Shown: piece after piece, positions 25,748 to 51,661 of the stretch
Layout of the letters: each line of letters starts with the position of its first letter
Position numbering within the stretch: position 1 is the first letter of the stretch
IMG/VR virus record: IMGVR_UViG_2912838376_000002
Coordinates: 1 to 64,000 of that record
Length of the DNA stretch: 64,000 bases
Strand: one strand, 5' to 3'
From: a virus
Lineage: Duplodnaviria; Caudoviricetes
Notes under the pieces: model-generated
Told to the model about the DNA's origin: nothing
Seen by the model: only the letters and a program-made list of their open reading frames with translations
Database searches by the model: none
Made by a program: the position numbers and the translations under genes

Positions 25748-25782
25748 TGTTCAATAAATAACATGTTCCAAATGTTCAATAG
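25748..25782 (+). promoter_or_regulatory. Ter-like replication terminator site (left), putative RTP-binding site
   Basis: TGTTCA-N8-CATGTTCCAAATGTTCAATAG; core ATGTTCCAAATGTTCA is 15/16 to the B. subtilis TerI B-site ATGTACCAAATGTTCA (from memory); the identical 21-mer occurs inverted at 51627-51647. Confidence 0.75.
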
Positions 25783-25795
25783 GAGGAAAAACAAA

Positions 25796-26017
25796 ATGAA
25801 TCAACAAGGGAATACAACAAATTTAGATGTGAATCTATTAATCAAAGAGTATGAGGATACAATTATTAAGTTAATCAGTGAAAACGTTAAATACAAAACA
25901 CTTCTAAAACAAAAAGCTATCGAAGAACAGCAACGTCAGGAAGAAATGATGCGACACGCAGCACCACCTGCACCACCTGTAGTTGCAACAGAAGAAGTCG
26001 TAGAAGCTGCAGCATAA
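25796..26017 (+). CDS. Small coiled-coil protein
   Basis: AGGAGG RBS (25781-25786) before ATG 25796. Confidence 0.7.
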   Translation: MNQQGNTTNLDVNLLIKEYEDTIIKLISENVKYKTLLKQKAIEEQQRQEEMMRHAAPPAPPVVATEEVVEAAA

Positions 26018-26066
26018 CAATAACGGATTATATATTGACTGGTTATATACGAATGGTTACGTTCAT

Positions 26067-26098
26067 GAGGGAGCAAAAGCTCCCTCTTATTTTATTTT
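26067..26098 (+). terminator. Rho-independent terminator
   Basis: GAGGGAGC-AAAA-GCTCCCTC followed by TTATTTTATTTT. Confidence 0.7.
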
Positions 26099-26114
26099 GG
26101 AGGTGTTTTTCTGT

Positions 26115-26489
26115 ATGACACAGGTACGAATTCGTTCCATTACAAAAGACGAAAAATCCCCCTGGGTTTATATTCAAGAAGAGACCAGACAGGAAACTCC
26201 AAAAGCAAATGTATTCCAAGTAAAAGCCGAACCTGTTATAAGAGAAAACACCAAAACAAATCAATATGGACGTTTTCGTTACAGTGAAATGCAATACGGA
26301 AGAATTGAAGCAATCTTAGCTTCTGCTTTAGAGATAAGTAAATCTCCTATGAGAATAAGAAACCAAAACGGAGAATGGATCTATATTCAACAAACAACCA
26401 TCGATGGTGCTTGTCCTGCTATTCGGGTACGAAACCGAAATAGTGAGCAAGTAGGACCTTGGGTTTATATCCAACATAAGGAGGTGTAG
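26115..26489 (+). CDS. Hypothetical structural-region protein with three W(V/I)YIQ repeats
   Basis: GGAGGTG RBS before ATG 26115; RIR...W.YIQ motif three times. Confidence 0.65.
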   Translation: MTQVRIRSITKDEKSPWVYIQEETRQETPKANVFQVKAEPVIRENTKTNQYGRFRYSEMQYGRIEAILASALEISKSPMRIRNQNGEWIYIQQTTIDGACPAIRVRNRNSEQVGPWVYIQHKEV

Positions 26490-26491
26490 GT

Positions 26492-27227
26492 ATGGAGTAT
26501 TTACATAATTATTTATCGGTTCTACCTAATTACGACGCAGCTATTACAAGAAAATATGGATTTGTTTGATGTAAAGGTCATAACCAAAGAAGAGTTCGAA
26601 GCGCTTATCCAACAACTTGCAAATAGACAAGAGAAGATTACAACTCTTACACCAACTGGTGAAAAAGTCGATGCTGAACATTTTAATCAAATGCATTCGA
26701 ATGTAGGTTTAGATTTGAAGCGACTTTATAACTCTCATCTTATCATCGAAAAAGTAATAGCGAACTACGACAGAATCCTTCGAGGAACATTAGATGATGT
26801 TAAAAGAGAAGTAGACTCACTTTCTACTCGCGTTGAGGAATTAAACCTTAAAGCAAAAGGGGAAGATGGTTTAGTCGTAAAGACTTATGGTTTTGAAGAG
26901 AAAGAAAAGAGCTTGTATATGGAAACAGACCGTGACCAATATGCTCATCTATTCTTAGACCGTGACGGTAGATCTTTACCTAGTGCGTCATTGAATCGAA
27001 GTTTTCATCAACACTATTTATCTCTACCTATTAGAGAAGTAGAGAATGCTCTACAAAACCCAAATGGAGCAACAACTGCAAAGATTGAAGTTGTGTACCA
27101 AGCACCAAATAGCATTTCAGATAGAAACCATCCATTGGAACATGCAATAGATGAATCATTTGAAACGTACTGGGCTCAAGCAGTTAAAACAAACGCACCT
27201 GCTTATACAGAAATAACAAAACTATAG
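26492..27227 (+). CDS. Virion protein, paralogous family member 1; apparent frameshift near 26535
   Basis: The RBS-preceded ATG at 26492 is out of frame with the 26556 ORF; GEKVDAEHFNQM...DLKRLY motif. Confidence 0.6.
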
Positions 27228-27242
27228 AAAGGAGGAAAGTAG

Positions 27243-28190
27243 ATGCCTACTCCCATTTATATTGAACAGCATTATTCATTATCAGTATCTGAATTTGAAG
27301 GACTATGGGAAATGACATTTATGCATCCATACAATCGACAAGAGCATTTTAGTATTTACCTAGTCGCTCCTAATAGTGATTATGAACATGCTGAACTTGA
27401 TGATCGACCGATTGTAGAAGCTGGACCAAGATTAAAAGAAGTATTAAAACGATTACTGTATAAAATCGAATATTATCCTTATTCTTGGGACTTTGCTGGG
27501 AATAAAATTGTTTCCTATGGATATGATTTCGAAACAGATTTCACAGGTACAAGTTTGACCTATATTGACCTAACAGAGATTGCACTTAAAGAAGTAAATG
27601 AATATTACAACTTCTTTTCTGCATTAGAAACAGATGTAGTAGACGAAACAGAAAAGGTCAGTGGAAAAGGTGTTATGGCCAAACTAAAAATCACATTAGA
27701 TAAACCTAAAACAGTAAACCATTTATCCGTTGATTTCTTCACAGAGTATCCAATCGAATTACTGTCATTGATGTATCAAGTTGATCAGAATGAAGAATCT
27801 ACTACTTACGAAATTCCTCTTTCAAAAGCAGTTCAAACAAATGGTTCTATTTATCTTCATTTCTCTCCTGTATTTGCAAAGACATTCTATTTAATAATTA
27901 AACAAGAGTCTTATACATTACTAGACCAATCAAAGACGGAAGAAGAAGTAATGAAAGCAGAGTTATGGAATCAAGCTTCAACGAGAAGCCAAGTTATTTA
28001 TGAATCTGCAGTCGGAGAATATGTAGATCAATTATTCTCATCTCAGTCAGGTATTCAGCTACATCAAGAAATCTTAGATAGCTACAAAAACGTCAACGTA
28101 AGTCATGAAGCTATTTCAGCAGATCCTATGAATCCATACCGTAGTGATTTTGAACGAGCAAAAAAATCTTTAGATAGCCAACAATCATAG
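27243..28190 (+). CDS. Hypothetical virion protein
   Basis: 315-aa ORF with AGGAGG RBS in the structural operon. Confidence 0.7.
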   Translation: MPTPIYIEQHYSLSVSEFEGLWEMTFMHPYNRQEHFSIYLVAPNSDYEHAELDDRPIVEAGPRLKEVLKRLLYKIEYYPYSWDFAGNKIVSYGYDFETDFTGTSLTYIDLTEIALKEVNEYYNFFSALETDVVDETEKVSGKGVMAKLKITLDKPKTVNHLSVDFFTEYPIELLSLMYQVDQNEESTTYEIPLSKAVQTNGSIYLHFSPVFAKTFYLIIKQESYTLLDQSKTEEEVMKAELWNQASTRSQVIYESAVGEYVDQLFSSQSGIQLHQEILDSYKNVNVSHEAISADPMNPYRSDFERAKKSLDSQQS

Positions 28191-28204
28191 AAAGGAGGAT
28201 TTTA

Positions 28205-29419
28205 ATGGTTAACAGTTTTGAAAGTGCAAGCAAACCAAAAACAACTTTAGTACAAAGTCAAAGCGTTGCAAGTAGTACGACACCTGGGCCACTTCCTCCA
28301 ATCGTAGAAGGAGTTGGCTCAAGCAACCGTACAAATAGTTCAACAGAGTATGTGTATCAATATGGGGTAAAGAACCTGCAGTTAAATCATTCACTGTATG
28401 AACAAGCAGGAATTTTCGTTACAAAACCAATTGAAGTAGAAGGGAATATTGTAGAGGTTTCACTATCTACCTTTGAAGACCATCCATTATTTAATGAATT
28501 AGATGGAATGGCAACAGATCGAGTTACTTCTATTGAATACTACATCTCATTAGAGGAGAATCCTTCGCTTAATGATTGGGTTTCAATTCTTCCGGAAGGT
28601 ACAAAGAATGTAAAATGCGAAAAGCTTTTCTTCCGTGGTTCAAGTGCAGAACTTCGATTCCATGCAGATATTAGTGATGAAGATAATACGAAAGTATACC
28701 GCAACAATATCTTAATGAATAGAAGTGATTGGTACTTTACAGAAAGAGGAGCTGCTATTCAGTTAGCTGTACCTCATGATAGTAGTTCAATCTATACAAT
28801 TGATTATGTACCAAACGCAAGCCTATTTGACCCTTGGACAGTTAAGGTAGGAGATCACTTCTCTAAGAGAGTTCGCAAAGTAGAGTCCTTCCCAAATGGA
28901 ACGGATTCTAATAACACGATTAAACTTTCTAAGTATCCATTTGTCGATTACAAACAAGTGAATAATGGAGAGAGCTATGATCCTAATACAAGTGATTACA
29001 GACCAATTGATGTATTCCTAACGAATGGTTCAATTGTAGTAGGAGGCGGAAAGACTCAACCAGAATTCTTCCCGATATCTTACTCAAGCAAAAATCAATT
29101 CACAACAAAGAACCGTACTGATTACAAAACAAGTAAAGATGTGTCTTTAAATAAGTACAGCATTGTTCCGGATTCTATTTACAACACATTTGAATACAAG
29201 CAAGAGAAGAATAAACTGATCTTCACTGAAAGCTTTAATCGTTCGGATCTTTATTACAACGAAGCAACAAATCATGGTAATGCTAAAGTCGTTGTTCACT
29301 ATGATTACCTAGTGACAAACTTCCGACTAAAAGTTATCTTACGTAAAAACGTAGGCGATGAACTAGTGGTAACACCAATGGTTGATAGCTATCAATTAAA
29401 ATTTAAAGTTATGAAATAG
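28205..29419 (+). CDS. Hypothetical virion protein
   Basis: 404 aa; YQYGVKNLQL..SLYEQAGIFVTKP and terminal TP.V..Y.L motifs shared with the C-terminal halves of 29432 and 31217. Confidence 0.7.
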   Translation: MVNSFESASKPKTTLVQSQSVASSTTPGPLPPIVEGVGSSNRTNSSTEYVYQYGVKNLQLNHSLYEQAGIFVTKPIEVEGNIVEVSLSTFEDHPLFNELDGMATDRVTSIEYYISLEENPSLNDWVSILPEGTKNVKCEKLFFRGSSAELRFHADISDEDNTKVYRNNILMNRSDWYFTERGAAIQLAVPHDSSSIYTIDYVPNASLFDPWTVKVGDHFSKRVRKVESFPNGTDSNNTIKLSKYPFVDYKQVNNGESYDPNTSDYRPIDVFLTNGSIVVGGGKTQPEFFPISYSSKNQFTTKNRTDYKTSKDVSLNKYSIVPDSIYNTFEYKQEKNKLIFTESFNRSDLYYNEATNHGNAKVVVHYDYLVTNFRLKVILRKNVGDELVVTPMVDSYQLKFKVMK

Positions 29420-29431
29420 GGAGGTGCAAGA

Positions 29432-31213
29432 ATGAATGCTCCTGTTATTGAATCTAAAATATTAGAGAAACAAAGAGAGTATCTTTTAGAGCAAGCAAAG
29501 CTACGATTAAGTAGTGCTGCTACACAAGAAGAGGTATCTCAATTAGCAGATGAAATCTTTTACAGGTATCAATCTTGCATAGGCAAGCCTTTATTCCAAG
29601 CGCGAAAAGTTGTGTATGGAGAATTACCTTTCCTTGAAGATTATTATGACAACAACAAGGACATGGAAAAAGACCTAGGTATTTTATTCTCAGAATTAAA
29701 TACTATTGCTACTTACCTAGTAGACTACTTCAACTATTCTCAAAGTGAGAAAGACAGAATCTTATCTATCGTTCGTGGTATTAATGGGGTTGTATCAGAT
29801 CTTCAAATGTTAACAGAAGAAACAACACCTAATACGATTTACTTAAAAGAATCGTTTACGAATTATGATAACGTCGATACGGTTTTAACTCCAGTAGAGA
29901 ACCGAAGTATGATCCATACACAAGAAGGGGTATTAACTCTTCGACGTGAAAATGCTTTAAATAGAAGCATCGGAAGTAAAGTCCGAACCATACAAGGTAA
30001 TGGTATTGCAGGTACTTATTATTTAGCCCGTAAAGTTCAATCAGATTCAGAATTCGAAAATTACGAACATATTTCTTCTCAAATTAAAAACGATGACCCA
30101 AAAGCATTAGTTGATGGAAACGTGGATACAGTATTCGAATTCGAAATGGTTAACATTCCAGAAAGCTATAAAAAGCAGGCTTTCTATTATGATGTTGAAT
30201 GGGCAAAAGGGAAAGAACATGACGACTTACTACGTGTAAAGATTGTTGTTCAATTACCTAAGAACGAGACAATCAACTGGATTAATTTAAATCCTTATCA
30301 TGCTGCAGGTAGCCCAGGTACAGTTAATGTGTATTCTATCCGAACATCTAATGACGGTATTGAGTATAAAGGCCTTTTTCAAAATGACCAATTTGTATTG
30401 AATCAAGAAATCAATAAAACACCTCAAAGTTATCGAGCAGAGGATTTATTTGATGGTAGTGAAAACTTTGCTAAAACAAAATTCTCTGGCCAAGGTGTTT
30501 GGAGCTTCCCATCAAGAGAAGCAAAGTACATCGAAATCGTACTAGAGCAACCAAACTCATACAAAGAATTACTAGGGCAAGAAGCTTTCTATAGAAGAAA
30601 AAAAGATTCTACTTCATGGACACGTATTCGAAAACAAGAAGTACCAAGTAATATCATTGATGAAAAATACGGTATTCATACTGTTAACAGCGACTATGAA
30701 ATTAAAAAAGTATTAGAAGCCGTTGAAGGATGGCGTTATGCTATCGGAATTCGAGATATTGATATTATGAGCTTTGAATTCGCTGAAGCAAGTGAGTATA
30801 TCAGTAAGCCGTTTTTACTTGAAGATGGTATTAAGAAAGTACTCCTATATGCCAATGAAAAAGTTCCTGCTATGTATAAAGAGAAAGTAAGTGAGTCTAA
30901 CGACTGGATTCAGTACTTTGTTTCTTTCGATGATATAGACTGGCACAGAGTTTCTCCACAACATCAGCAACCGGTAAACGATAAGTTCCCAGCAAAGATT
31001 CTTTCTATTAACGATAACGAATCTGATATTGAAAATGCGTTTGCTCTTCATAAACAAAACCTTCAGTTAAAAGAACTTCCGAAACAAGTAAGATTAAAAA
31101 TCATTATGAAGCGACCAGACAAAACAACAGAAGATGAGATACCTCTTCTTCATACAACACCGCTTGTTGAAGACTTCGCTTTAAAAATTCTTACAGAACA
31201 GAAAGGGGTGTAG
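29432..31213 (+). CDS. Virion protein, paralogous family member 2
   Basis: 593 aa; GELPFLEDYYDN...DLGILF motif; ALVDGNVDT discoidin-like segment. Confidence 0.7.
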   Translation: MNAPVIESKILEKQREYLLEQAKLRLSSAATQEEVSQLADEIFYRYQSCIGKPLFQARKVVYGELPFLEDYYDNNKDMEKDLGILFSELNTIATYLVDYFNYSQSEKDRILSIVRGINGVVSDLQMLTEETTPNTIYLKESFTNYDNVDTVLTPVENRSMIHTQEGVLTLRRENALNRSIGSKVRTIQGNGIAGTYYLARKVQSDSEFENYEHISSQIKNDDPKALVDGNVDTVFEFEMVNIPESYKKQAFYYDVEWAKGKEHDDLLRVKIVVQLPKNETINWINLNPYHAAGSPGTVNVYSIRTSNDGIEYKGLFQNDQFVLNQEINKTPQSYRAEDLFDGSENFAKTKFSGQGVWSFPSREAKYIEIVLEQPNSYKELLGQEAFYRRKKDSTSWTRIRKQEVPSNIIDEKYGIHTVNSDYEIKKVLEAVEGWRYAIGIRDIDIMSFEFAEASEYISKPFLLEDGIKKVLLYANEKVPAMYKEKVSESNDWIQYFVSFDDIDWHRVSPQHQQPVNDKFPAKILSINDNESDIENAFALHKQNLQLKELPKQVRLKIIMKRPDKTTEDEIPLLHTTPLVEDFALKILTEQKGV

Positions 31214-31216
31214 GAG

Positions 31217-33271
31217 ATGTCTATTAACATTCGTCAAAAACGTTTTACTGTAGCAGTAAACCAAATCCTTCAGGAAGAACTTCGAAAGGGGAATCTTCCT
31301 ACATCCAAGGAGTTCGGTTCGCGTTTAAATAAACTACTAAGAGATCAAGACTTAGGTGCTCCTGAGTATACATTCAAACGTATTCGTAATGGGGAATTAG
31401 CTGAGTCCGATTTCTATAATGAAGTTGTTAGTAAAATTCAAAAAGACTTGATGATTCTTTATGAAAATACAATCGCCGTTCACGATCAGTTAAAGGGAAA
31501 GTTTAATTGGTTTGAGGTAGAAAAGAATCGATTAGAGTATGAGGCTAGAAGGTTAGAAACAGAATTAAAAGAGAAAATCTTACTGTATGGTAAGACGGGT
31601 TACTTAGCGAGTATCTTTGATACATTTGATGACTTATCTAAAATCGAATCAGAAGAGAATGTATCTATTGATATAAAGAACCATCAGATTACACTTAAAA
31701 AACAGGAGAATACTTCATTCTTAATCAATCCTGATAGTGTAATTAAATTCGTTATGCCGAAAAGTTCTGCAAGTACATTCAAAAAGATTCCTATTTCAGG
31801 AAAGATTGAACAAGCTTTGAATGTAAATACAAACGAAACATTCCAAGAGGTATGGCTATCTAAAACAGAGGGACCAGCTGATGGGTATGTAGATATCACA
31901 TTCAACGACAGACAGGTATTAAACCGAATTGATTTAAGTCTACATTCAATTAAGGATGTTACGGTGTATATCGAATTCACGCTAGATGAACTAAACTACT
32001 TCCACTTACCGTACTATCCAGAAGGAAAACAGACGGGCAATAACGTATCATTTTATTTCCCAACAACAGAAATGAAAAGCATGAGAATTTGGATTCGCAA
32101 ACAGGAAAGCGATAAAGAAATTGTTCATCCTGAAGGGTACTCATACCAGTACTTGTTCGGAGTTAAAAAGATTCAATTCTTCCAACTAAGCTATCCGGAA
32201 AGAGGAGAGGTTGTTACAAAATTCCTTACTCCGAATACAGACGAAACATTCTCTATTGGTAAAGTATCATTGGTTACAGAAGAAGAGATTCCCGATGGTA
32301 CAGATATTGAGTACTTTGTACGTGTAGATAATAGGGAAGAGAGTTGGAAACAGATTTCTCCTGTTAATAGAGATACTGCACAAGCTCCTAACCTAATTGA
32401 TTTTAAATACGTTGTACATGCTAGTCCAACAAACTTAGGTATTCCAGAGAATGCTAGTGGCCAAGAATCAGAAATCATTGAACTACAAGCAAACGGAATC
32501 GCATTTTATTCATTAGGTTCAATCGAAAAACGAAAAATCGTTCCGCGAACAGAACGCTTGTATATGGGCAAAGATGCTTGGAGTATGCAAAAGACAGTGG
32601 CGGACTTCGGTGAAACTCATATCCCTTCATTAGACGACTGGAAGCAACCATCAAATGATATTGTCCGTAATGTGATTCCGATTAAGGAAGGGAATCGTGG
32701 ATTGATTCTGCAAGATGAGCAATTCACACAGCATACACAACTGTACTATGGAATGGGTATTTTCTATGAAGGAAAAGAACAAGTACTTCCTACGATTCCA
32801 TCATCTACAGAACCAATTACTATCTTCTTAAATGGAGAGAAATTATTTGAGGGAATCCCTTCTTCTCAAACCAATGTGAACTATAAGTTTAAGCAAGGGT
32901 GGAATGACTTAACCGTGTTGGTATATGTACAGAGTTTAAACAAAGACTGTACGATTGATTTAGGATTTGATCCGATTCGTGTAAGTACACATTGTTATTC
33001 TACAAGTCAGTTCTTAGAGAAGGTATCTGTATTCGACCTTCGATACAACACAAAGAATAATGATTGGTCTAAGTACGCTCTTTACGAGAAAGATGGAAAG
33101 GTCTATATTGTGGTTAATCATTCGTTACCTGGTGTAACATATGACCTTTACTATGACTACGTAGATGAAGTAGAGCATCGAGATATCCAATTAAAAATTG
33201 CTATGAAACAATTCTCAGTAGGACAATATACGACACCTGTATTACGTCGCTACACATTACAATTTAGTTAG
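31217..33271 (+). CDS. Virion protein, paralogous family member 3
   Basis: 684 aa; GELAESDFYNEV...DLMILY motif. Confidence 0.7.
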   Translation: MSINIRQKRFTVAVNQILQEELRKGNLPTSKEFGSRLNKLLRDQDLGAPEYTFKRIRNGELAESDFYNEVVSKIQKDLMILYENTIAVHDQLKGKFNWFEVEKNRLEYEARRLETELKEKILLYGKTGYLASIFDTFDDLSKIESEENVSIDIKNHQITLKKQENTSFLINPDSVIKFVMPKSSASTFKKIPISGKIEQALNVNTNETFQEVWLSKTEGPADGYVDITFNDRQVLNRIDLSLHSIKDVTVYIEFTLDELNYFHLPYYPEGKQTGNNVSFYFPTTEMKSMRIWIRKQESDKEIVHPEGYSYQYLFGVKKIQFFQLSYPERGEVVTKFLTPNTDETFSIGKVSLVTEEEIPDGTDIEYFVRVDNREESWKQISPVNRDTAQAPNLIDFKYVVHASPTNLGIPENASGQESEIIELQANGIAFYSLGSIEKRKIVPRTERLYMGKDAWSMQKTVADFGETHIPSLDDWKQPSNDIVRNVIPIKEGNRGLILQDEQFTQHTQLYYGMGIFYEGKEQVLPTIPSSTEPITIFLNGEKLFEGIPSSQTNVNYKFKQGWNDLTVLVYVQSLNKDCTIDLGFDPIRVSTHCYSTSQFLEKVSVFDLRYNTKNNDWSKYALYEKDGKVYIVVNHSLPGVTYDLYYDYVDEVEHRDIQLKIAMKQFSVGQYTTPVLRRYTLQFS

Positions 33272-36736: not shown

Positions 36737-37087
36737 GTGACAAAGAAAAAGATGGATACGTTTAAAATTGCATGTGGTTTTGGAGTCTGGGGGTACACCT
36801 TTTTTCTAGGTGCTATGCTTACACATGTGTATTATGCTGGTGATCTTCTCCTAGCAACATGTATCTATGGATTTATTGGGAGTGTACTTTTAACTATACA
36901 ATATCATATGTTACGGGATCTCCCATTTACGGAGCGTCTCCTTGAAATAATGATAGTACTAATAATACAGGCATATACTATTTTTTCTGAACATCAAAAT
37001 ATGAATGTGGTAATGCTTGTATTTGTTATTGCTGTTGTGAGTTGTGTATTAATTAATCAAAAGAAAGTAAGAAAAGTATATAGGTAA
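36737..37087 (+). CDS. Four-TM membrane protein (putative immunity)
   Basis: GGGAGG RBS before GTG 36737; four hydrophobic segments with basic termini. Confidence 0.55.
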   Translation: MTKKKMDTFKIACGFGVWGYTFFLGAMLTHVYYAGDLLLATCIYGFIGSVLLTIQYHMLRDLPFTERLLEIMIVLIIQAYTIFSEHQNMNVVMLVFVIAVVSCVLINQKKVRKVYR

Positions 37088-37111
37088 CTAATAATGTCAT
37101 CATAAATTCCT

Positions 37112-37157
37112 AAAAAAGAGAAGGGAGCATAACCGAAATGGCATGCTCCTTTTTTAT
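37112..37157. terminator. Bidirectional terminator at the coding-strand switch
   Basis: A-rich run, GGAGCAT...ATGCTCC hairpin and T run between convergent genes. Confidence 0.65.
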
Positions 37158-37358
37158 TTAAAACTTTATCTTTGAAACTTCTTCTAATAAAGCTTTCTTT
37201 TTATTCTCATCAGTTGTTGTAAGAGATTCATTAATCATTCCTGTAGCTTTAAGAAAGTTCTTAACTGCTTCTACTTCTTCGGGTCTAGAATCTTCGTTTT
37301 CTAAAACCTCTAAAGCATATGTAATTGAAGTAGCAAGTGAAACCGTTAAAATTTCCAT
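37158..37358 (-). CDS. Hypothetical protein
   Basis: AAGGAG RBS before MEILTV. Confidence 0.6.
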   Translation of the reverse strand: MEILTVSLATSITYALEVLENEDSRPEEVEAVKNFLKATGMINESLTTTDENKKKALLEEVSKIKF

Positions 37359-39774: not shown

Positions 39775-39802
39775 TCTTAACGATAATATTATTATGTTAA
39801 CT
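39775..39802 (+). other. dif-like site (XerC/XerD, CodV/RipX type)
   Basis: (T)CTTAACGATAA-TATTA-TTATGTTAACT; right arm 10/11 to both the E. coli (TTATGTTAAAT) and B. subtilis (TTATGTAAACT) XerD arms as recalled; spacer is 5 rather than 6 bp. Confidence 0.5.
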
Positions 39803-39803
39803 C

Positions 39804-39831
39804 TTTCTACTAAAAACGCTTATTGTTGAAA
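39804..39831. other. 11-6-11 palindromic difSL-like core site (site C)
   Basis: TTTCTACTAAA-AACGCT-TATTGTTGAAA, 1 bp from the dif-like site. Confidence 0.6.
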
Positions 39832-41241: not shown

Positions 41242-41529
41242 TTACCAGTTGTGCGTGGGCAAATCATCAATTACTTCAATATCTCTATCAAGCATAAGCC
41301 AAGAACATCCTTTTCCCATTGCGTATCCAATTATGAATACTAATGACTCTGGTAGCACTTTACCTGCAAACATTTCTGGATACAGTGGAATAAACGCTCC
41401 ATATTCACCTTTTTCGTAAACAATAAGCTCCATATCGTTCTCTTTTGTTGCCTCAACTTGGCTGTCTAACCATTTAGCCGTTTCGTAAGTAATGTGTGCA
41501 GTAGAAACTTCTAACATTTTTTGAATCAT
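41242..41529 (-). CDS. DUF5983-like protein
   Basis: GGAGG RBS before MIQK; LEVSTAHIT...GC.WL.LD.D...LP...W. Confidence 0.6.
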   Translation of the reverse strand: MIQKMLEVSTAHITYETAKWLDSQVEATKENDMELIVYEKGEYGAFIPLYPEMFAGKVLPESLVFIIGYAMGKGCSWLMLDRDIEVIDDLPTHNW

Positions 41530-41651
41530 ACTTCTTATGCCTCCATCGTCAAATACAAAAAAAGATCCCGAATTAACGGGACCTTTCTTTATAGGGTATT
41601 TCGACTCATTTTTTATTTTAACAATATACACAAAAAATGTATACTTTTCTC

Positions 41652-42104
41652 TTATTCTTCGTCTTCGAAATCACGTAGGTTATCAAGCAACTCTGTAAAT
41701 GTAGAGCAAACAGGGTATATTGCTTTCTCTATATCATCTTCTTCATGATCCCAAAATACGATTGTTGGTGAATCAGGATTGTTTCGATAATCAAAACATA
41801 AAAAATTTCCAAACGAATCACTTGCAAATGGGTATACTCGATCCACCAACCATTCTTTTATATTCTCGTATCTTTGGACAATTGAATATTTATCATCCAT
41901 ATGTAGAGTTAATAGATCATTAAATGTACTTTCATCTTGTCCTGCTATATCAAAAACTTTAGGCTGAGGATATCCTCCGTCATTTTCTTTAACACACTCA
42001 ATAAAATCATTAGGTAATTTAATGTTAAAATACTCTTCTACTTTTTTTATCTCATTATCCGTAATTTCTTTTTTACTTACACCAATCCATGTAATGTTAC
42101 TCAC
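41652..42104 (-). CDS. SMI1/KNR4 (SUKH) immunity protein
   Basis: EIKKVEEYFNIKLPNDF...NDGG; PFASDSFGNFLCFDYR...IVFWDHE. Confidence 0.9.
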   Translation of the reverse strand: MSNITWIGVSKKEITDNEIKKVEEYFNIKLPNDFIECVKENDGGYPQPKVFDIAGQDESTFNDLLTLHMDDKYSIVQRYENIKEWLVDRVYPFASDSFGNFLCFDYRNNPDSPTIVFWDHEEDDIEKAIYPVCSTFTELLDNLRDFEDEE

Positions 42105-42116
42105 GGGTCAACCTCC

Positions 42117-43349
42117 TTATTTTTCACCTTTTTTGCCCCAAATATTATATCCACCAGTATGACCAGTTTTCTCATGCAGGAACGCGTCTACGAGCTGCAT
42201 TCTACCTGTATCCTGATGGTGGTGCCATGTATACGTCTTAGGTTTTTCACCCCTCTTAAATAGTTCAATTTCCTCTGCTGTAAATTTAGCAGCCAATTTT
42301 GGATCTTTTACTATTTGTTCGTATAACAGCTTATTACATATTCTATCATGTGTAGGTCTTGTTTTTTTAAAGTCAGCTTCTTTTAGTTTAACTTCAGCAA
42401 AAGCATCGAAAATAGGGAACCCATCTAAATCATACGGTACACCTGAAACTGGATGCCTATCTCCCGCCAACTCCCCTTTTCTTAATTTGATTGTCTTTGG
42501 ACCATTTTTACCTTCATAAGTATAGGTGACCGCTTTCTGTAAATACTGCTGAGTACTTCCGACTCCCGCATATGAAAGATGGTTCCCACCTTTAAACTCA
42601 TAGTTGTTTAATATATGCAATGCATTTCTGTATGCTGGGGAATTAATTACAAGTGATTTACCTTTAGCAAAACCTGTAACAGCAGCTACCTTCCCTACTT
42701 GTCCTGCTTTACTAAGACCCTTATCACCCAGAAGTCCGAGTCCTAACGTTGTTATACCATAAGCTACATAATGCTCTCTACTTTCCAAATCTCCATTCCA
42801 AAACTTATTCATAAATGTATCTGAGAAAGCGTTCCATGCAGCAGGAATAGTTTCCTCATAGTTTACAATCGCATCTCTCATATTCAGCCAGGTTTCTTTA
42901 TCAGCTAAGGATATTAGTCCTTCCCATGCATCTACTGCACCATCTACAAAACCAGTAGAAATACCAGTCCACGCAGCACTTAAATCCTTTTTATTAAAAA
43001 ATGACTCTTCTGATTTTGGAGGGAGTTTTCCACACATGGCTCCTTCTTGAATATCAGAATCAGCTAGATTCCCGCCATACAGCTCATCGGCTTCTCGGAA
43101 TTTAACAGCTGCACGTTCTAATTCTACTGCAATTTTTTCTAATTCTTGTAGAACATTAAACATCATTGGTTTCGTATCATTAAACATATGGTAGAACCGA
43201 TCACTAGTTGCTCCACTCCATTGAGAAGCAATGTATTCTGTTTGTTTATATAAATCTTTATGTATGTACTCTAGGGTTGATTTCGCATCTCTTACGGTTT
43301 TGGCCGCATTTTCTAATTGCTCTGGCGTTACCTTAATCTGCGTACTCAT
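42117..43349 (-). CDS. T7SS polymorphic toxin: WXG100 N-terminus plus HNH (WHH-type) nuclease
   Basis: IKVTPEQL...QWSG WXG100; C-terminal GFPIF...YTWHHHQDTGRMQLV...H...GHTGG. Confidence 0.9.
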   Translation of the reverse strand: MSTQIKVTPEQLENAAKTVRDAKSTLEYIHKDLYKQTEYIASQWSGATSDRFYHMFNDTKPMMFNVLQELEKIAVELERAAVKFREADELYGGNLADSDIQEGAMCGKLPPKSEESFFNKKDLSAAWTGISTGFVDGAVDAWEGLISLADKETWLNMRDAIVNYEETIPAAWNAFSDTFMNKFWNGDLESREHYVAYGITTLGLGLLGDKGLSKAGQVGKVAAVTGFAKGKSLVINSPAYRNALHILNNYEFKGGNHLSYAGVGSTQQYLQKAVTYTYEGKNGPKTIKLRKGELAGDRHPVSGVPYDLDGFPIFDAFAEVKLKEADFKKTRPTHDRICNKLLYEQIVKDPKLAAKFTAEEIELFKRGEKPKTYTWHHHQDTGRMQLVDAFLHEKTGHTGGYNIWGKKGEK

Positions 43350-44481: not shown

Positions 44482-44482
44482 A

Positions 44483-45071: not shown

Positions 45072-45085
45072 TCCCCTTCCCCCTC

Positions 45086-45603: not shown

Positions 45604-45650
45604 TACGTTACCTCCATTTATTAAAAAGAGCCCAAAATAGGGCTCTCACT

Positions 45651-46084: not shown

Positions 46085-46116
46085 TTCAAATACCGTCCTT
46101 TATCTTGATGTTTTAA

Positions 46117-47153
46117 TTAAGCTGCATATGATGGAAGGCCTTCAAACACAAAATCTTCGTCTCGTACTTCTTCAACGTTAATGGCTTTTACATATCCATT
46201 TCCTTTAACAGAGAAGAAATCATGTTGTTTCGTTTTTGTTTGTAGTCCATTTTGAACGATTGGATTTACATACTCATCATCAAAGTATTGGTCATATCCT
46301 AAATTCATCATTGCTTTATTTGCGTTATAACGTAGGAATTTGTTTACTTCTTCGATCATGTCTTGTCCAAGTGGAGCATACACATCATTCGTGTAATCTA
46401 ATTCATTCGCGTATAACACTTCTAATAATTGAATTGCTTCTTTATCTACCTCTTGCTGTTCAGCTTCAGTAAGTTGGTTTTCATAAATCTCTTGAGCAAA
46501 GATACCACCTGTTACCCCGTGAATTGCCTCATCCCTTAAAATTAATGCGATGATTTCACCGGAAGCAGTTAGCTGTCCTTGTCCTGCTAAGAATAGCGGA
46601 TAGAAGAATCCACTGTAGAATAAAAAGCTTTCTAAGAATACTGATGCTACTATAGCCATATATAGTTCTTTTGGATCCACATCAGGTTTTAATAACTTAC
46701 GATAATGACCTGTTATGATATCAGCTTTCTTTTGAAGGAATGGGTTCTCTTCAACCCAATCAAACACCGCATCTACTTCTTCATTTTCACAAAGAGTCAT
46801 GAAAATATGAGAATACGATTTCGCATGGATATCCTCCATCATTGCCATGAAGTTGATAATTGCTTTCTTTTGAGGGTCTTCCATATGCAATGAGACAAGT
46901 GGCATACCATACCCTCTCCACCTTGCTTTGTATCTAATAGCGTTAAACCGCCAAGAACTTTCTTATATACTTCCTTCTGTTCTTTCGGAAGCATGTCCCA
47001 AACGTTCTTATCTTTTGATACAGGTATCTCATTTTCTAGCCAAAACTGTTGGCGCATTTGGTTGTAAATGGACTCGATATATTCTGTATTGTATTTGGTC
47101 CAGTTAACCGCTTTATGTTTCTTTAAATCTACTGATCTAGTACTAATCACCAC
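46117..47153 (-). pseudogene. nrdF: Class Ib ribonucleotide reductase beta subunit, frameshifted by a 5-bp duplication
   Basis: GGLTLLDTKQ, EDIHAKSY, ESFLFYSGF and DEAIHG motifs; duplication CATAC-CATAC at 46903-46912. Confidence 0.9.
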
Positions 47154-47168
47154 TACTACTCCTCTCTC

Positions 47169-49253
47169 TTATACTGCACAAGCAATACATTCTTCTATAG
47201 TTGAATTTGATGTACGTGTATAGTAAAGGCTCTTAAGCCCTTTCTTTTCTGCATAGATGTAATAACGAGCAAGATCTCTTGTCGAAGTACCATTTGTAAC
47301 GTGCAGAATACATGAAATACCTTGGTCTACGTGAGGTTGGATTTCAGCAATTAAATCAATAACTTTCATTTGATCCATCTCATAAGCAGACTTATAAGAG
47401 AAGAATGTTTGTTTTGATAAGTAAGGCATTGGATAGTAAGTAGTCGCTTTATCAGTTGAGCGAGTTTCTACTTTATCAACGATTGGCATTACGCTTGGTG
47501 TAGCGTTCTGTACATATCCTGAGCTTTGATTCGGAGCAATTGCAAGTCTGTAAGAGTGGTATAAACCATCACGTTGAACTTGCTTCATTAGACGTTCCCA
47601 ATCCTCAGTTGTTGGAATCTGAATACCTTCAAATAGCTTCTTAACTTTTTCAGATTGAGGCAAGAATTCAGTTGTTAAATACTTCTCAAAATAAGTACCT
47701 TTTGCATATTCAGATTTTTCGAACCCTTCAAAAGATACTCCTCTTTCTTTAGCAATCTCTGAAGATTTTTCGATAGAGTGATAGTTCAGCATTGCAAAGA
47801 ATACACGAGCAAAGTCTTTTGCATCTTCTGATTCGTATGGAATGAAGTTCTTAGCAAGGAATCCATGAAGGTTCATTGTTCCAAGACCTACTGAGTGTAA
47901 TGTAGCATTCGCTTTCTTAACACCAGGAGCGTTTTCGATATTAGACTTATCTGTAACATCTGTTAACATTTCCATACCAGTATGCACAGCTTCTTTTACA
48001 TCCTTATTCTCCATTACATTTACAATGTTTAATGAACCTAATACACAAGAAATGTCATTCTTAATCCAGTCCGCGATATTGTAATCGTTAATTACGCTTG
48101 TCTCCATATACTGAAAAATCTCAGTACAAAGATTAGACATTTTAACGTCGCCTAAATCTTTTAATGGATGTTGTTCATTCGCGTTTGTTTTATTCATAAA
48201 ATAAGGATAGCCAGATTCTAATTGAATCGTTGCGATCTTAACTAACATGTCACGAGCTGTAAGGTCTAACTTGCGTTTACGAACCATAGGGTTTGCTACT
48301 AACTCTTCGTATTTCTCATCTAAATCCATATCATCTAGGTGGACTCCATAAGCTTTATAAACAGTAGCAGGTGCAAATACATACATCTCTTTGTTTTGTT
48401 CAGCTAATTGGAAGAACTTTCTCGGTGTAACTAATCCAATAGATAAAGATTGAATACGTGTCTTCTCATCGGCATTTACTTTTTTTGAATCAAGGAATTC
48501 AATTAAGTCCCAATGGAAGATGTTTAAATAAGCAGCACCAGCACCTGGTCGTTGTCCAAGTTGGTTAATGTAAGAGAATGAATCCTCCATTAACTTCATT
48601 ACCGGTAATACACCACTAGCAGCGTTCTCAATACCTTTAATAGCTTCAGTACGACCACGTAATTTACTTAAGTTAATCGCAATTCCTCCACCAATTTTAG
48701 ATAACTGTTTTGCTACTGATAAGTTGTAGTTAATACTATTTAATGAGTCATCCATTTCTAATAGGAAGCAACTAACTAATTCCCCAGCACGAGCTTTACC
48801 AGAATTTAAATATGTTGGTGTAGCCGGTTGGTAATTTTGCTTCATAATTTGGTTCACATAACGTAGTGCTTTCTTTGCATTACCTGACGCTAAGTATAAA
48901 GCTACAATTGCAGCACGATCTTCATAATCTTCTAAGTAGATTTTCTTATCGTCTGAACGTAATGAGTAGTCCTTGTAGAACTTTGTAGCAGCCATATAGG
49001 ATTGGAATTCAAACTTATGAGCATAAGCAGCTTCATAAATACGTTCAACTTCTTCCTCCGTATATTCTCCAAACACATTGTAGTAATAATTGTGTTCGAT
49101 AAGGTACTTGATTTTGTCTAGTATCGAAGCAAACTCTAATTGCTTTGTTTTTACTTCGGCAAGGAATACCGCTAGGGCTTCTTTGTCTTTTGCAAGTTGA
49201 TAGAATCCATCCTTTAAGATCCCAACTTCATTGTTTAATGCAACGTGAGACAT
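47169..49253 (-). CDS. nrdE: Class Ib ribonucleotide reductase alpha subunit
   Basis: QPATPTYLNSG, LVSCFLL, SNLCTE, KSLYY and C-terminal CIAC. Confidence 0.95.
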   Translation of the reverse strand: MSHVALNNEVGILKDGFYQLAKDKEALAVFLAEVKTKQLEFASILDKIKYLIEHNYYYNVFGEYTEEEVERIYEAAYAHKFEFQSYMAATKFYKDYSLRSDDKKIYLEDYEDRAAIVALYLASGNAKKALRYVNQIMKQNYQPATPTYLNSGKARAGELVSCFLLEMDDSLNSINYNLSVAKQLSKIGGGIAINLSKLRGRTEAIKGIENAASGVLPVMKLMEDSFSYINQLGQRPGAGAAYLNIFHWDLIEFLDSKKVNADEKTRIQSLSIGLVTPRKFFQLAEQNKEMYVFAPATVYKAYGVHLDDMDLDEKYEELVANPMVRKRKLDLTARDMLVKIATIQLESGYPYFMNKTNANEQHPLKDLGDVKMSNLCTEIFQYMETSVINDYNIADWIKNDISCVLGSLNIVNVMENKDVKEAVHTGMEMLTDVTDKSNIENAPGVKKANATLHSVGLGTMNLHGFLAKNFIPYESEDAKDFARVFFAMLNYHSIEKSSEIAKERGVSFEGFEKSEYAKGTYFEKYLTTEFLPQSEKVKKLFEGIQIPTTEDWERLMKQVQRDGLYHSYRLAIAPNQSSGYVQNATPSVMPIVDKVETRSTDKATTYYPMPYLSKQTFFSYKSAYEMDQMKVIDLIAEIQPHVDQGISCILHVTNGTSTRDLARYYIYAEKKGLKSLYYTRTSNSTIEECIACAV

Positions 49254-49597
49254 AGTTCTTCTATCCTTTCTTTGGTTATTTGTATATCTTTTCTTGTCCC
49301 GCTTAACTCAAATTGATGAATGAGCGGTACGTGATATTGCTCTGAAATAACTCTTCCTGCAGCTGCGAAGTGTTCACCCCAGTTGCGGTTACCACTACTA
49401 GCAACTCCTTGTAAGAATGAATTATTGGCTTGTAGAAATGACTGTGTAGTTTCTGGAACTTGACCGAATCCTGATGTATAAGTAATCAAGATGAAAGGCT
49501 GTTCCATAACTAAGTCGGGTGTAATTTGTACAGCTGGCATACCGAGTTTCTTAATGAACCTCTTTACGTTTCCAGTCTTGCTGTCAAATACAATCAT
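49235..49597 (-). CDS. nrdI: Flavodoxin-like NrdI
   Basis: FDSKTGNVKRF; SSGNRNWG; FELSG. Confidence 0.95.
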   Translation of the reverse strand: MIVFDSKTGNVKRFIKKLGMPAVQITPDLVMEQPFILITYTSGFGQVPETTQSFLQANNSFLQGVASSGNRNWGEHFAAAGRVISEQYHVPLIHQFELSGTRKDIQITKERIEELCLTLH

Positions 49598-49697
49598 GTG
49601 CATCACACCTTTTTTGAAACTTTTTAAAATACAACCATTTGATTTCTAAAAGTCAATTCGAGATATGGCCTATTTTTTAGATTTTCATATGGGCATA

Positions 49698-49713
49698 GCC
49701 CTACATATAGATT
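49698..49713. promoter_or_regulatory. NrdR-box-like site
   Basis: GCCCTACATATAGATT has the CTACATATAG core; upstream of nrdI; no convincing second box. Confidence 0.4.
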
Positions 49714-49782
49714 TCTAAAAATCGAACATTCATTCTTGATTCAGGAAAAAATGAGATATAAAATAGAAGTGAGGTGAAAATA

Positions 49783-50880
49783 ATGAGACTTGAACGCCAA
49801 AAGGATAGTGAGAAGCTAGAAAAACTACGTCCTTCGTTTCCTTACTATATTTCTGAATACATACAAGTGAGCTTAGATCAACTCACGCCTACAACAGTTC
49901 TCTCATATACAATAGATATCCAAGACTTTTTAGAATGGTTTTGGCATACTTTCGTACCGGAAAAACCGGGAATAAAAGAAATCTCCCTAGAAGACCTAGA
50001 GAGATTAATTGAGATTGATATATCTCATTACCGTTCGCACTTAAAGTATCGTGAGGATTCTCATAACAAAGGTAATAGATATTACAAAACAAAAAATAAG
50101 GACACCACAATCAGCAGAAAGATTAGTGCCCTTAGAAGTTTATTTGATTATTTAACTAAGAATACAAACCGTGAGACAGGAAGACCCTATCTTAGTAAGA
50201 ACGTACTTGAGAACACAAAAGTATTCTCCACGAAAGTTTCTGTTAGAGCTAAGGCTCAGAAACTAAAGAATAGTATTATAAGACTTGAAGAACTGACTGA
50301 GTTCCAAGACTTTATCCTAGAGGGATATGGTAAAGAACAATTAAGTAACATGGAAAAAGCCTACTGGAAAATTAATCGACATAGAGATGCTGCAATCATA
50401 TCCCTTTTATTAACTAGTGGTATCCGTGTTGGTGAGTTATCTAGTCTTAGACTGAAAGATGTTATCTTTGATTCCCGCAAGTTAGTCGTAGAAAGAAAAC
50501 GTAGTAAGGAAGATGTTGTTTTCTTTTCTAAGCAGACGTTAGAATATATAGTACAGTACCTTGAAGTTAGAGAAAGTCATTATAAAGCAGACGATAAACC
50601 GACTTCTCCTTTATTTGTTACAAAATATGCAGGTAAGATAAATCCTATCAGTAAGAATACTGTTCAAAAAATGATAATGAAATATGCTAAAATCTATGGA
50701 AAGCCCGAACTAACAGCACACATATTGCGTCATAGTTTCGGGACGAATGTATTTAAAAAGACCAAGAACATTCGAGGAGTACAAGAAGCTCTTGGTCATT
50801 CATCAATTAATACGACTCAAATCTATACTCACATGTTCGAAGACGACGAACGTGAATTAATAGATGAAGTGTTTGAGTAA
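49783..50880 (+). CDS. Tyrosine recombinase, XerS-like
   Basis: R (SGIRVGEL), K, HxxR (HILRH), LGH and Y (TQIY) catalytic motifs; ~365 aa with P.YI.EY N-terminus; GAGGTG RBS. Confidence 0.85.
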   Translation: MRLERQKDSEKLEKLRPSFPYYISEYIQVSLDQLTPTTVLSYTIDIQDFLEWFWHTFVPEKPGIKEISLEDLERLIEIDISHYRSHLKYREDSHNKGNRYYKTKNKDTTISRKISALRSLFDYLTKNTNRETGRPYLSKNVLENTKVFSTKVSVRAKAQKLKNSIIRLEELTEFQDFILEGYGKEQLSNMEKAYWKINRHRDAAIISLLLTSGIRVGELSSLRLKDVIFDSRKLVVERKRSKEDVVFFSKQTLEYIVQYLEVRESHYKADDKPTSPLFVTKYAGKINPISKNTVQKMIMKYAKIYGKPELTAHILRHSFGTNVFKKTKNIRGVQEALGHSSINTTQIYTHMFEDDERELIDEVFE

Positions 50881-50884
50881 AACA

Positions 50885-50914
50885 AAAAGGCTAAGGATAA
50901 ATTCCCTAGCCTTT
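50885..50914. terminator. Bidirectional terminator
   Basis: AAAAAGGCTAAGG...CCCTAGCCTTT between convergent genes. Confidence 0.6.
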
Positions 50915-51116
50915 AATTTATGCCCAACATTCTTATTTGTTCAAAACACAAACTATATAAACCTGGGCGCAATACTTCCCCTTCAATTTTAAAGGTTCTG
51001 TAATCAAATCCCCAGTCAATTGTTCCGTGACATTCTACTGTATATACCTGACCAACCTTGAAATGCTTATAGTTTCCAATACACATAGAGCGTACTAAAT
51101 AAGGTTTCTCCATCAC
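50913..51116 (-). CDS. Hypothetical protein
   Basis: 67-aa ORF directly downstream of rtp. Confidence 0.55.
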   Translation of the reverse strand: MMEKPYLVRSMCIGNYKHFKVGQVYTVECHGTIDWGFDYRTFKIEGEVLRPGLYSLCFEQIRMLGIN

Positions 51117-51121
51117 AACCC

Positions 51122-51508
51122 CTAACTAACTGGACCATAATGATCTTTAAGTGCTTTATCAAGCAATCCTTTGCAACGTTCCAGTTCTTTCTTCATTTGT
51201 TGTTTATATCTGTCGTATTCTTTCTTACCGTCATCAGTCAATTGATAAAGAATGATTTCTTGAAAGTCTACTCCCTCTTCCCCTTTTATCTTCTTCTCCC
51301 GTTTTACATATCCATCTCGTGTTAATTCATGTAATGTTTTATATAGTTCTGTATGAGTTGGATTATAGCCTAAAAACTTAAACTCTTCTCTCAAGTCATT
51401 AAGATACTGTGAACCATACCCTTTATTACGATCAATTATTTTATAGATATATAACTTTAAGTATGAACGCTGTTTTAATAAGAACCCTCTATTTTGATAT
51501 TCCTCCAC
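51122..51508 (-). CDS. rtp: Replication terminator protein homologue
   Basis: GFLLKQRSYLKLY...YG...LREEFK.LGY.P.HTE.Y..LHEL..DG...QEIILYQ...ELERCK.L..KAL.D parallels B. subtilis RTP along its length. Confidence 0.9.
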   Translation of the reverse strand: MEEYQNRGFLLKQRSYLKLYIYKIIDRNKGYGSQYLNDLREEFKFLGYNPTHTELYKTLHELTRDGYVKREKKIKGEEGVDFQEIILYQLTDDGKKEYDRYKQQMKKELERCKGLLDKALKDHYGPVS

Positions 51509-51626
51509 CTATAACACCCCTTCTAAATGAAAAAACCATATTCTTATCTTTCAGTAGTTAAATTAATTATACAATTCATAGCAGATTTTGTAAGCTTATT
51601 TGCTACTGACTATGTATTTTAAATAA

Positions 51627-51661
51627 CTATTGAACATTTGGAACATGGTTGGTGATGAACA
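51627..51661 (-). promoter_or_regulatory. Ter-like replication terminator site (right), upstream of rtp
   Basis: Minus strand TGTTCA-TCACCAAC-CATGTTCCAAATGTTCAATAG; 21-mer identical to 25762-25782. Confidence 0.75.

Follow-up and report, generated by a model that had tools for sequence, protein, structure and literature searches.

Introduction

In the fork trap of Bacillus subtilis, the replication terminator protein (RTP) binds the B half of its Ter sites more strongly, and a fork that meets the B site first is arrested; the clockwise fork is blocked at terI, and terI/terII on one side and terVIII on the other enclose rtp and dif (PMC13220808, PMC10331603). The mechanism of polar arrest by RTP is still poorly understood (PMC13220808), and the protein has been stated to be confined to a subgroup of Bacillales (PMC6549158). 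Here we describe a homologous system on a virus. The window, i.e. the whole stretch of DNA that was analysed, comprises bases 1-64,000 of the 244,829-bp virus record IMGVR_UViG_2912838376_000002 (G000 below), and we consider it likely that it carries an RTP/Ter fork trap with a XerS/dif-type resolution zone on a jumbo phage-plasmid.

The closest described relative of this element is pBtic235 of B. thuringiensis, a circular, inducible and plaque-forming jumbo prophage-plasmid (PMC6199540, PMC8026635, PMC9700832), and the XerS, ParM and replisome genes of the pBtic235 group have already been published (PMC8026635). The B. cereus group has been reported to lack Rtp, and the presence of Rtp-like and 'XerC' genes on pBtic235 is in print (PMC8116677). 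The accessible portions of PMC8116677, PMC6199540, PMC8026635 and PMC9700832 describe no Ter sites, trap polarity or dif-like site on this plasmid, and literature searches, with the original pBtic235 description (Gillis 2017) outside their scope, found no RTP/Ter trap described on a plasmid or phage. As far as these sources go, the rtp-like gene on pBtic235 was known before, and the Ter sites, their trap polarity and the dif-like site are reported here.

Results

RTP and its two sites in the window

The initial annotation of the window, made from the letters alone, had proposed a fork trap formed by an RTP homologue and two inverted copies of a 21-mer. The three features are as follows.

51122-51508, minus strand: rtp, encoding a replication terminator protein homologue of 128 amino acids (Pfam, structure match, alignment)
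25748-25782, plus strand: Ter-1, with the weakly conserved A-side hexamer TGTTCA at 25748-25753, an 8-nucleotide spacer and a 21-bp core at 25762-25782; 33.7 bits
51627-51661, minus strand: Ter-2 (TerI-like), with the core at 51627-51647 and the A-side hexamer at 51656-51661; 33.7 bits

The assignment of 51122-51508 to RTP was upheld by a full-length match of the protein to the Pfam RTP family (PF02334; E 5e-41, 140.2 bits against a cut-off of 26.7, profile positions 1-113 of 113) and by a match to the B. subtilis RTP structure 1bm9 (E 2.7e-28, residues 3-124); in a six-frame search the RTP profile scored 139.6 bits. PadR was rejected as the best family, as its profile scored 32.5 bits (cut-off 27) versus 140.2 bits for RTP. 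The recognition-helix region HTE.Y..LHEL, a Tyr-Gly pair and LYQ are conserved, and the helix HTELYKTLHEL of the window protein pairs with HTEVYRSLHEL in the alignment to B. subtilis RTP. Tyr88 of RTP has a role in arrest, and Y88 is invariant in all 14 aligned sequences. Y31-G32 of the window protein correspond to Tyr33-Gly34 of B. subtilis RTP, which touch the phosphate backbone (PMC3506622). The identity to the B. amyloliquefaciens RTP is 46%.

The 21-mer CATGTTCCAAATGTTCAATAG was found, as annotated, at 25762-25782 on the plus strand and at 51627-51647 on the minus strand, each copy preceded by TGTTCA 8 nucleotides upstream (25748-25753, and 51656-51661 on the minus strand). The window contained no third match with up to three mismatches, 100 dinucleotide shuffles of it contained none, and the whole 244,829-bp record had the same two copies only. 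A weight-matrix scan of G000 gave 33.7 bits at both sites and at most 14.8 bits elsewhere, with a mean maximum of 16.0 bits (largest 25.2) in 40 Markov shuffles; the matrix was built from these same sites, and what informs is that no further sites appear, rather than how high the two score.

Between the window core ATGTTCCAAATGTTCA and ATGTACCAAATGTTCA, found upstream of chromosomal rtp in B. amyloliquefaciens (L009) and B. siamensis (L148), a single position out of 16 is different; the annotation had counted 15 of 16 matches to the B-site core of B. subtilis TerI, and the same score was obtained against these two loci. In B. amyloliquefaciens, the rtp strand carries ...ACTAAATAAACTATGTACCAAATGTTCA at ~160 bp upstream of the gene, with a second, inverted copy beside the ribosome-binding site (RBS), and the B. 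siamensis locus is arranged alike. Relative to rtp, the core is oriented alike in the window and in both chromosomal loci, and the geometry of Ter-2 is that of the distal Ter upstream of rtp in B. amyloliquefaciens. Ter-2 lies ~120 bp upstream of rtp with its core end directed to rtp and lower coordinates, whereas Ter-1 lies 25.9 kb off, within the virion-gene block, with its core (B) end directed to higher coordinates.

The element and its relatives

The last and the first 3 kb of G000 map head-to-tail on pBtic235 (35952-32959 with 95% identity and 32947-29947 with 91%). Because the record ends align in this way, G000 is a permuted complete circle: it is a ~245-kb circular jumbo phage-plasmid of the pBtic235 group, of Bacillus cereus-group type. 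According to the map of open reading frames (ORFs) and Pfam, plus-strand virion genes occupy the arc that begins at 189 kb, crosses the record ends and finishes at 37 kb, and include an intein-bearing terminase, portal, capsid, baseplate J and several proteins of 1,000-2,400 amino acids. The intein of the putative large terminase (193,152-196,046, plus strand, outside the window) has a LAGLIDADG endonuclease domain. The minus-strand block from 37 to 189 kb, ~150 kb of genes, encodes a DnaE-type Pol III alpha, a DnaB-like helicase, an NAD ligase, SSB, RecA, a UvrD-type helicase and nrdIEF, and a plus-strand island at 161.9-164.7 kb carries a RepA_N initiator (E 2e-13).

Whole relatives compared with G000 were pBtic235, pAD3 (B. 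velezensis, 220 kb) and pN497-ZHONG, here pCyto (Cytobacillus oceanisediminis, 240 kb); a fifth complete replicon, G001 (239,374 bp), came from an exact-pattern scan of IMG/VR. These five replicons are mutually related, and their agreement does not amount to five independent events. The identity of their RTPs to the window protein is 95% for pBtic235, 80% for pAD3, 78% for G001 and 62% for pCyto, the closest RTP (95%) being that of eight copies of the 235-kb plasmid of B. thuringiensis serovar israelensis.

G000, pBtic235, pAD3 and pCyto have exactly two sites each at 30.2-33.7 bits, with all other positions at or below 16.7 bits, and G001 has two exact pattern matches. The IMG/VR scan also returned a pBtic235-like fragment of 128.8 kb that has two sites; single sites were found in a 64-kb fragment and in each of two contigs from the same assembly. 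In all five complete replicons the cores are inverted and face inward, at a spacing of 18.8-30.0 kb, and one site lies 120-160 bp upstream of rtp and points at the gene, as in B. amyloliquefaciens. The fork-trap polarity that the annotation had claimed is thus retained in every replicon: by the published polarity rule, each site is permissive to a fork arriving from outside. In pCyto, a weak inverted site of 16.2 bits at 136,959-136,979 (minus strand) occupies the TerII position between Ter and rtp; it is absent in G000.

The variable core positions are equal at both sites within a replicon and differ between replicons (T..G in G000, T..T in pAD3, G..C in pCyto and T..A in G001), which is expected if one protein reads both sites; pBtic235 is the exception, its two sites differing at one base. 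The second site has moved in the group. The block homologous to 26.1-35.3 kb of the window is collinear in all relatives, and in G000, pBtic235 and G001 the second site stands in front of the ORF for a 73-amino-acid protein, whereas in pAD3 and pCyto it stands directly after a gene for a 415-amino-acid protein, ~10 kb further on, with its polarity retained. The homologues of the ORFs flanking Ter-1 in G000 are present in pCyto, with no site between them.

These data also bear on the idea that the repeat arose by chance or is a selfish duplicate without function. Its short length speaks for this, and nothing else does; as said above, the shuffles gave no match, and the sites are conserved and co-vary in elements from the B. 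cereus group, B. velezensis and Cytobacillus whose RTPs are 62-80% identical, a conservation that refutes a functionless duplicate. We regard the probability of such an origin as practically nil.

A zone with XerS and a dif-like site opposite the RepA_N initiator

Between Ter-1 and Ter-2 lie rtp, a XerS-type recombinase gene, a convergent switch of the coding strand and a dif-like sequence. The features needed for the layout are as follows.

161,933-163,030 of G000, plus strand: RepA_N initiator (PF06970, E 2e-13, 50.5 bits against a cut-off of 30)
37087-37158, no strand: convergent coding-strand switch (37087/37158), with the cumulative total GC-skew maximum at 37,127
39775-39805, plus strand: conserved dif-like site (...GATAATATTATTATGTTAACTCTT); 39782-39805 is unique in G000 and lies ~0.1 kb from the point opposite RepA_N (39.7 kb)
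49774-50880, plus strand: XerS-type tyrosine recombinase (NCBIfam NF003462 equivalog, 329.2 bits against a cut-off of 267; Pfam Phage_integrase)
49629-49657, plus strand: conserved element ATACAACCNTT-N13-GTCAAT, ~145 bp upstream of xerS, in the same place in four of four replicons

The origin of a RepA_N replicon lies within or beside the initiator gene. RepA_N is also present in pBtic235, pAD3 and G001, and the point opposite it falls inside the Ter pair in all four replicons that have it, which are related and do not represent four independent trials. This point is at 39.7 kb in G000 (trap 25.8-51.6 kb), at 234.1 kb in pBtic235 (219.2-243.6 kb) and at 65.8 kb in G001 (56.5-86.6 kb); in pAD3 it is at 173.17 kb, only 0.1 kb inside the trap edge. 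Conversely, the point opposite the trap midpoint of G000 is at 161.1 kb, and the RepA_N gene at 161.9-163.0 kb. The trap takes up 8.5-12.5% of its circle in each replicon. The arm lengths would fit bidirectional replication from the RepA_N initiator opposite the trap.

The Ter pair also straddles the coding-strand switch, proposed at ~37.1 kb and mapped here at 37087/37158, and the dif-like site at 39.8 kb, whose unique part is conserved in three relatives. This site presumably resembles the dif of B. subtilis. Its counterparts within the Ter pair are at 231.5 kb in pBtic235, 167.9 kb in pAD3 and 154.4 kb in pCyto, and in all three the recombinase homologue is annotated as xerS. Four of the five replicons have XerS and the conserved dif-like site inside the pair. 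In G001, two direct dif-like copies (...ATATCTTATGTAAACTAGAAA) lie 2.9 kb apart inside the trap (72,975-75,880; L163), possibly as borders of a dif-flanked insertion. The element ATACAACCNTT-N13-GTCAAT upstream of xerS could, from its sequence and position, be a XerS site or a regulatory site; it is without obvious difSL arms as quoted in PMC5357621. The known difSL measures 31 bp with an 11-bp spacer and lies beside xerS, whereas the better dif-like candidate here is 10 kb from xerS, at 39.8 kb.

From this arrangement we infer that RTP binds the sites and arrests forks with polarity, that replication proceeds as a bidirectional theta from the RepA_N region and that the dif-like site takes part in dimer resolution. 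The element-encoded RTP would bind, as a dimer, the two bipartite Ter sites, whose conserved, presumably high-affinity cores (B sides) face each other. Ter-1 would block forks moving towards lower coordinates and Ter-2 those moving towards higher coordinates, the latter having crossed rtp first, as at terI. Since the cores face inward, a fork on either arm would pass the first site from its permissive A side and halt at the second, which it meets core-first. Fork fusion would thereby be confined to a 26-kb zone, ~10% of the circle, opposite RepA_N, and XerS within this zone would serve dimer resolution.

Published read coverage on pBtic235

Bolotin 2020 mapped three 4Q7 samples on the AM65-52 copy of pBtic235 (PMC8116677). 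In two of them coverage was ~1.5-fold higher over 225.5->235.4/1->48.6 kb, and at position 48,586 reads support a junction to the chromosome; in the third, coverage was raised over 210->235.4/1->15 kb (PMC8116677). The authors noted the rtp-like and 'XerC' genes near the 225-kb border, remarked that a single junction had been detected and had no explanation (PMC8116677).

In the pBtic235 record NZ_CP013278.1 we found the sites at 225,347-225,366 (plus strand) and 14,326-14,345 (minus strand). The borders without a junction, at 225.5 kb and at 15 kb, each coincide with a Ter site that turns its core towards the over-covered side. If synthesis enters at 48.6 kb and moves down, it would pass the 14.3-kb site on the A side and come upon the 225.35-kb site core-first; if it enters near 210 kb and moves up, the A side would be passed at 225.35 kb and the core met first at 14.3 kb. 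Reverse polarity would swap the two junction-free borders. The coverage borders are suggestive of the predicted polar arrest at the Ter sites but do not prove it, and the unexplained steps in the widely used strain 4Q7 would gain a concrete explanation. A bold reading is that the RTP of the element would halt host forks and reshape chromosome ends when the element is joined to the chromosome, e.g. in 4Q7.

Operators of a transcription factor or terminators

Three further features concern transcription near the sites.

51566-51594, minus strand: likely rtp promoter CTTACA-17-TATAAT (from the sequence; kept in pBtic235)
25718-25746, plus strand: promoter-like TTGATA-17-TATGAT, just upstream of Ter-1, with 10 of 12 matches
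25796-26017, plus strand: small ORF for 73 amino acids, no family, directly 3' of Ter-1 in the virion block, with homologues in pBtic235 and pCyto

The Ter-2 core lies upstream of the likely rtp promoter, its end 33 bp from the -35 hexamer, and by analogy with B. subtilis, whose RTP autoregulates via a Ter site (PMC10331603), the window RTP probably regulates its own gene through Ter-2. Ter-1 abuts the RBS GGAGG of ORF 25796-26017, for which no NCBIfam match was found.

The same arrangement could be explained by an RTP homologue that acts only as a PadR-like transcription factor and has no part in replication, with the 21-mers as operators for autoregulation and for control of ORF 25796-26017 and the downstream virion genes. 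The Prokaryotic Genome Annotation Pipeline labels the homologues 'helix-turn-helix transcriptional regulator', and RTP and PadR have a common fold and DNA-binding mode (PMC3506622); the window protein passes the PadR cut-off (32.5 bits versus 27). Every site is co-oriented with the next gene, and in G000, pBtic235 and G001 Ter-1 lies just 3' of the promoter-like sequence and abuts the RBS; the autoregulation of B. subtilis RTP would suit operators as well. However, the RTP profile scores four times as high as the PadR profile, the sites share their core with the Ter of chromosomal rtp loci, and the promoter-like sites in the Ter-1 region, three in number, do not exceed those in shuffles (mean 4.9). 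Moreover, the second site of pAD3 and pCyto is at a non-homologous place after the last conserved virion gene, and the intergenic region of pCyto homologous to that of Ter-1 has no site. Inward polarity in five of five replicons, a position opposite RepA_N and coverage borders at both of the sites do not follow from an operator model, which we consider unlikely.

GC skew, replication mode and points against the trap

The annotation had named inversion of the cumulative GC skew within the Ter pair as a check of the trap. The inversion was found there (maximum at 37,127 in G000, and inside the pair in all four replicons computed), but total GC skew is mostly a coding-strand effect here. We used third-codon-position skew to part replication from coding effects, and its signal was weak and noisy. 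In the 37-162 kb region of G000 the minus strand is G-rich at third positions in minus-strand genes (+0.088, n=117), and the plus-strand genes of the same region have -0.122 relative to the coding strand (n=10), which again makes the minus strand G-rich. This asymmetry is genuine and fits forks moving towards 37 kb. The virion arm of G000 had no matching plus-strand enrichment at third positions (-0.05, -0.06), and third-position skew does not locate the terminus in G000, pBtic235 or pCyto. Only in pAD3 does it flip as predicted, with the maximum at 167.1 kb in the trap and the minimum at 71.8 kb, 8.7 kb from RepA_N. Because the total-skew maximum coincides with the coding-strand switch and third-position skew is mostly one-signed, skew is poor independent evidence.

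Several observations weigh against a trap that ends bidirectional replication. Total skew is weak independent evidence, and its minimum lies ~26 kb from RepA_N, so that it does not pin down the origin. At third positions, the skew of G000, pBtic235 and pCyto does not change sign over most of the circle, to which a unidirectional replication mode may contribute. No RepA_N was found in pCyto; in G001, the G000-type dif-like motif was not found at up to two mismatches, and the 40 kb examined around its trap contained no XerS. Arrest in B. subtilis needs both A and B sites, and here the A side is weakly conserved, with only a loose T.TTC...AAC pattern across nine sites; a hexamer T[AG]TTC[TA] occurs at the same spacing in chromosomal loci, e.g. 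L071, L074 and L078. An extra weak site of pAD3 (15.8 bits, within the null range) lies outside the trap with opposite polarity. The promoter-like TTGATA-17-TATGAT before Ter-1 may, judged from its sequence, point to a regulatory side-role of this site. Finally, the coverage argument uses rounded values from the text of PMC8116677, and the authors' own alternatives for the steps are duplication or integration (PMC8116677).

Part of this evidence would suit sites that do arrest forks but were selected as barriers to run-on forks (rolling-circle or over-replication) or to host forks entering an element that is joined to the chromosome. The single sign of third-position skew in three of four replicons hints at a unidirectional component, the published coverage steps concern chromosome-joined DNA (PMC8116677), and Tus-ter on plasmid R1 limits over-replication and rolling-circle intermediates (PMC10331603). 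Against this, the position opposite RepA_N in four of four replicons, together with a trap that holds XerS and a dif-like site, is how a true terminus is laid out; moreover, one function does not preclude the other. We assign a low probability to selection as a barrier, and prefer the fork trap at the terminus. The annotation's claim of an element with its own chromosome-like terminus, replicating bidirectionally as a circle, draws support from the circularity of G000, the arm lengths, the trap opposite RepA_N and the coverage steps.

Other genes in and beside the trapped zone

A polymorphic-toxin cassette lies inside the trapped zone (41242-43349, minus strand). It encodes a protein of 410 amino acids with a WXG100 N-terminus and a colicin-DNase/WHH nuclease C-terminus, followed by SUKH/SMI1 immunity-type and DUF5983 proteins. 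The nrdF gene (46117-47153, minus strand) consists of two overlapping ORFs of 262 amino acids (profile positions 72-281 only) and 104 amino acids; in pBtic235 it is a single gene for 318 amino acids, and the split in the window could be a frameshift or a sequencing error. A small unannotated ORF (51670-51815, minus strand), conserved in pBtic235, encodes a hydrophobic N-terminus and two Cys-x-x-Cys pairs and stops a few bases before the A side of Ter-2. Adjoining the trap, a cargo block (53715-63376, minus strand) encodes a NupC-type nucleoside transporter, Sir2, TerC, two TerD proteins, a GIY-YIG endonuclease and a nicotinamide/nicotinate phosphoribosyltransferase.

Discussion

Our analysis establishes the RTP family membership of the window protein, the number, polarity and conservation of its sites, their layout on the element and the agreement with published coverage steps. 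Such a phage-plasmid would also be a small natural replicon on which polar arrest by RTP could be tested without touching the chromosome.

The position of Ter-1 within the virion operon in G000, pBtic235 and G001 invites the idea that the trap acts as a lifestyle switch. In the plasmid state, with the late genes silent, RTP would sit on both Ter sites and the element would complete one clean theta round ending at the XerS/dif zone. After induction, late transcription would cross Ter-1 from the permissive side and strip off RTP, and a fork could then run on through the opened trap as a rolling circle and supply concatemers for packaging; this unidirectional mode would have left its trace in the single sign of third-position skew. 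We regard such a switch as conceivable but unlikely.

Outside the pBtic235 group, the phage collection gave no DNA match to 50900-52000 in blastn, and at the protein level only the Brevibacillus phages Jenst and SecTim467 (3 records) match RTP. RTP homologues occur on 26 large, non-mobilizable Bacillales plasmid records, given which fork traps on plasmids may be more widespread. The B. velezensis US1 plasmid and B. licheniformis pBL141-2 had no convincing Ter pair when searched with the G000-type pattern and the B. subtilis-type core (the US1 plasmid had two one-mismatch core hits, and the reversed-pattern control one), and the plasmids pY5S7-2 of Paenibacillus and pSHB9 of B. pumilus had no recognisable core upstream of rtp. 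On pBL141-2 (L011, 1367-3357), the RTP homologue stands beside a DnaA_N-domain protein and a run of ~22-bp iterons; this terminator gene next to a likely origin is reminiscent of R1-type plasmids.

A search of genome-assembly contigs yielded 146 RTP relatives, and the best 80 of these are considered here. These loci come from many Bacillaceae, Anoxybacillaceae and Sporolactobacillaceae, often from megabase-scale contigs, and the best 80 of 146 include no B. cereus-group record. A core with up to two mismatches, on the rtp strand and within 600 bp upstream, was found at 16 of the best 80 loci, and at 28 with up to three mismatches; 43 had no core match on either strand, and 9 had one on the other strand only.

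The RTP tree comprised 85 rows, namely 78 of the 80 loci (two fell outside a 100-170 amino acid filter) and seven plasmid or reference rows; it rests on 130 columns only, and its deep forks are unsure. The three closest phage-plasmid RTPs group together (100/98) and are joined by that of pCyto (86/68), inside a clade (100/99) with assembly loci of Cytobacillus, Peribacillus and 'Bacillus massiliigorillae/testis' type. Some contigs of this clade are megabase-scale, and only some are long enough for a sure chromosomal origin. The RTPs of the US1 and B. licheniformis plasmids group with B. subtilis-group genes instead (100/93). Two plasmid lineages in one tree suggest repeated capture by mobile elements, and their placement points to capture of rtp by large plasmids at least twice. 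For the Tus trap, derivation from a plasmid has been proposed (PMC6549158); the phage-plasmid RTPs, by contrast, nest among assembly-derived loci.

Compared with the described systems, the Tus/ter traps of R1, R6K and E. coli share with the window a polar protein-DNA barrier, plasmid-borne in part, that restricts where forks end (PMC10331603), but protein and sites are unrelated to RTP and its Ter sites; the ter sites of R1 lie beside the origin and enforce unidirectional replication, whereas those of the window lie opposite the presumed origin. Brevibacillus phage Jenst also encodes an RTP homologue (37% identity) with two inverted Ter-like cores upstream of the gene, but its cores are ~60 bp apart, as in TerI/TerII, instead of 19-30 kb, and its 126-kb record is linear. 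In this phage (L159, 1330-1440), the two inverted TATGTACTAATTGTACA stand just upstream of the annotated 'replication terminator', a gene at a strand switch in mid-genome. Closest of all is pBtic235, with a 95% identical RTP, a collinear genome, the same two sites, XerS and the dif-like site.

With the trap of B. subtilis the element shares a homologous protein, 15 of 16 core positions, a Ter upstream of rtp with its core facing the gene, and opposed sites that enclose rtp and a dif-type site (PMC13220808). It differs in having two sites where B. subtilis has nine (PMC13220808), in the absence of a closely paired TerII by rtp in the window, in a single recombinase of XerS type and in being carried, outside the chromosome, by a replicon that encodes virions. 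RTP/Ter has so far been regarded as a speciality of chromosomes in a subgroup of Bacillales (PMC6549158); here the whole system is found on a virus that is kept as a plasmid.

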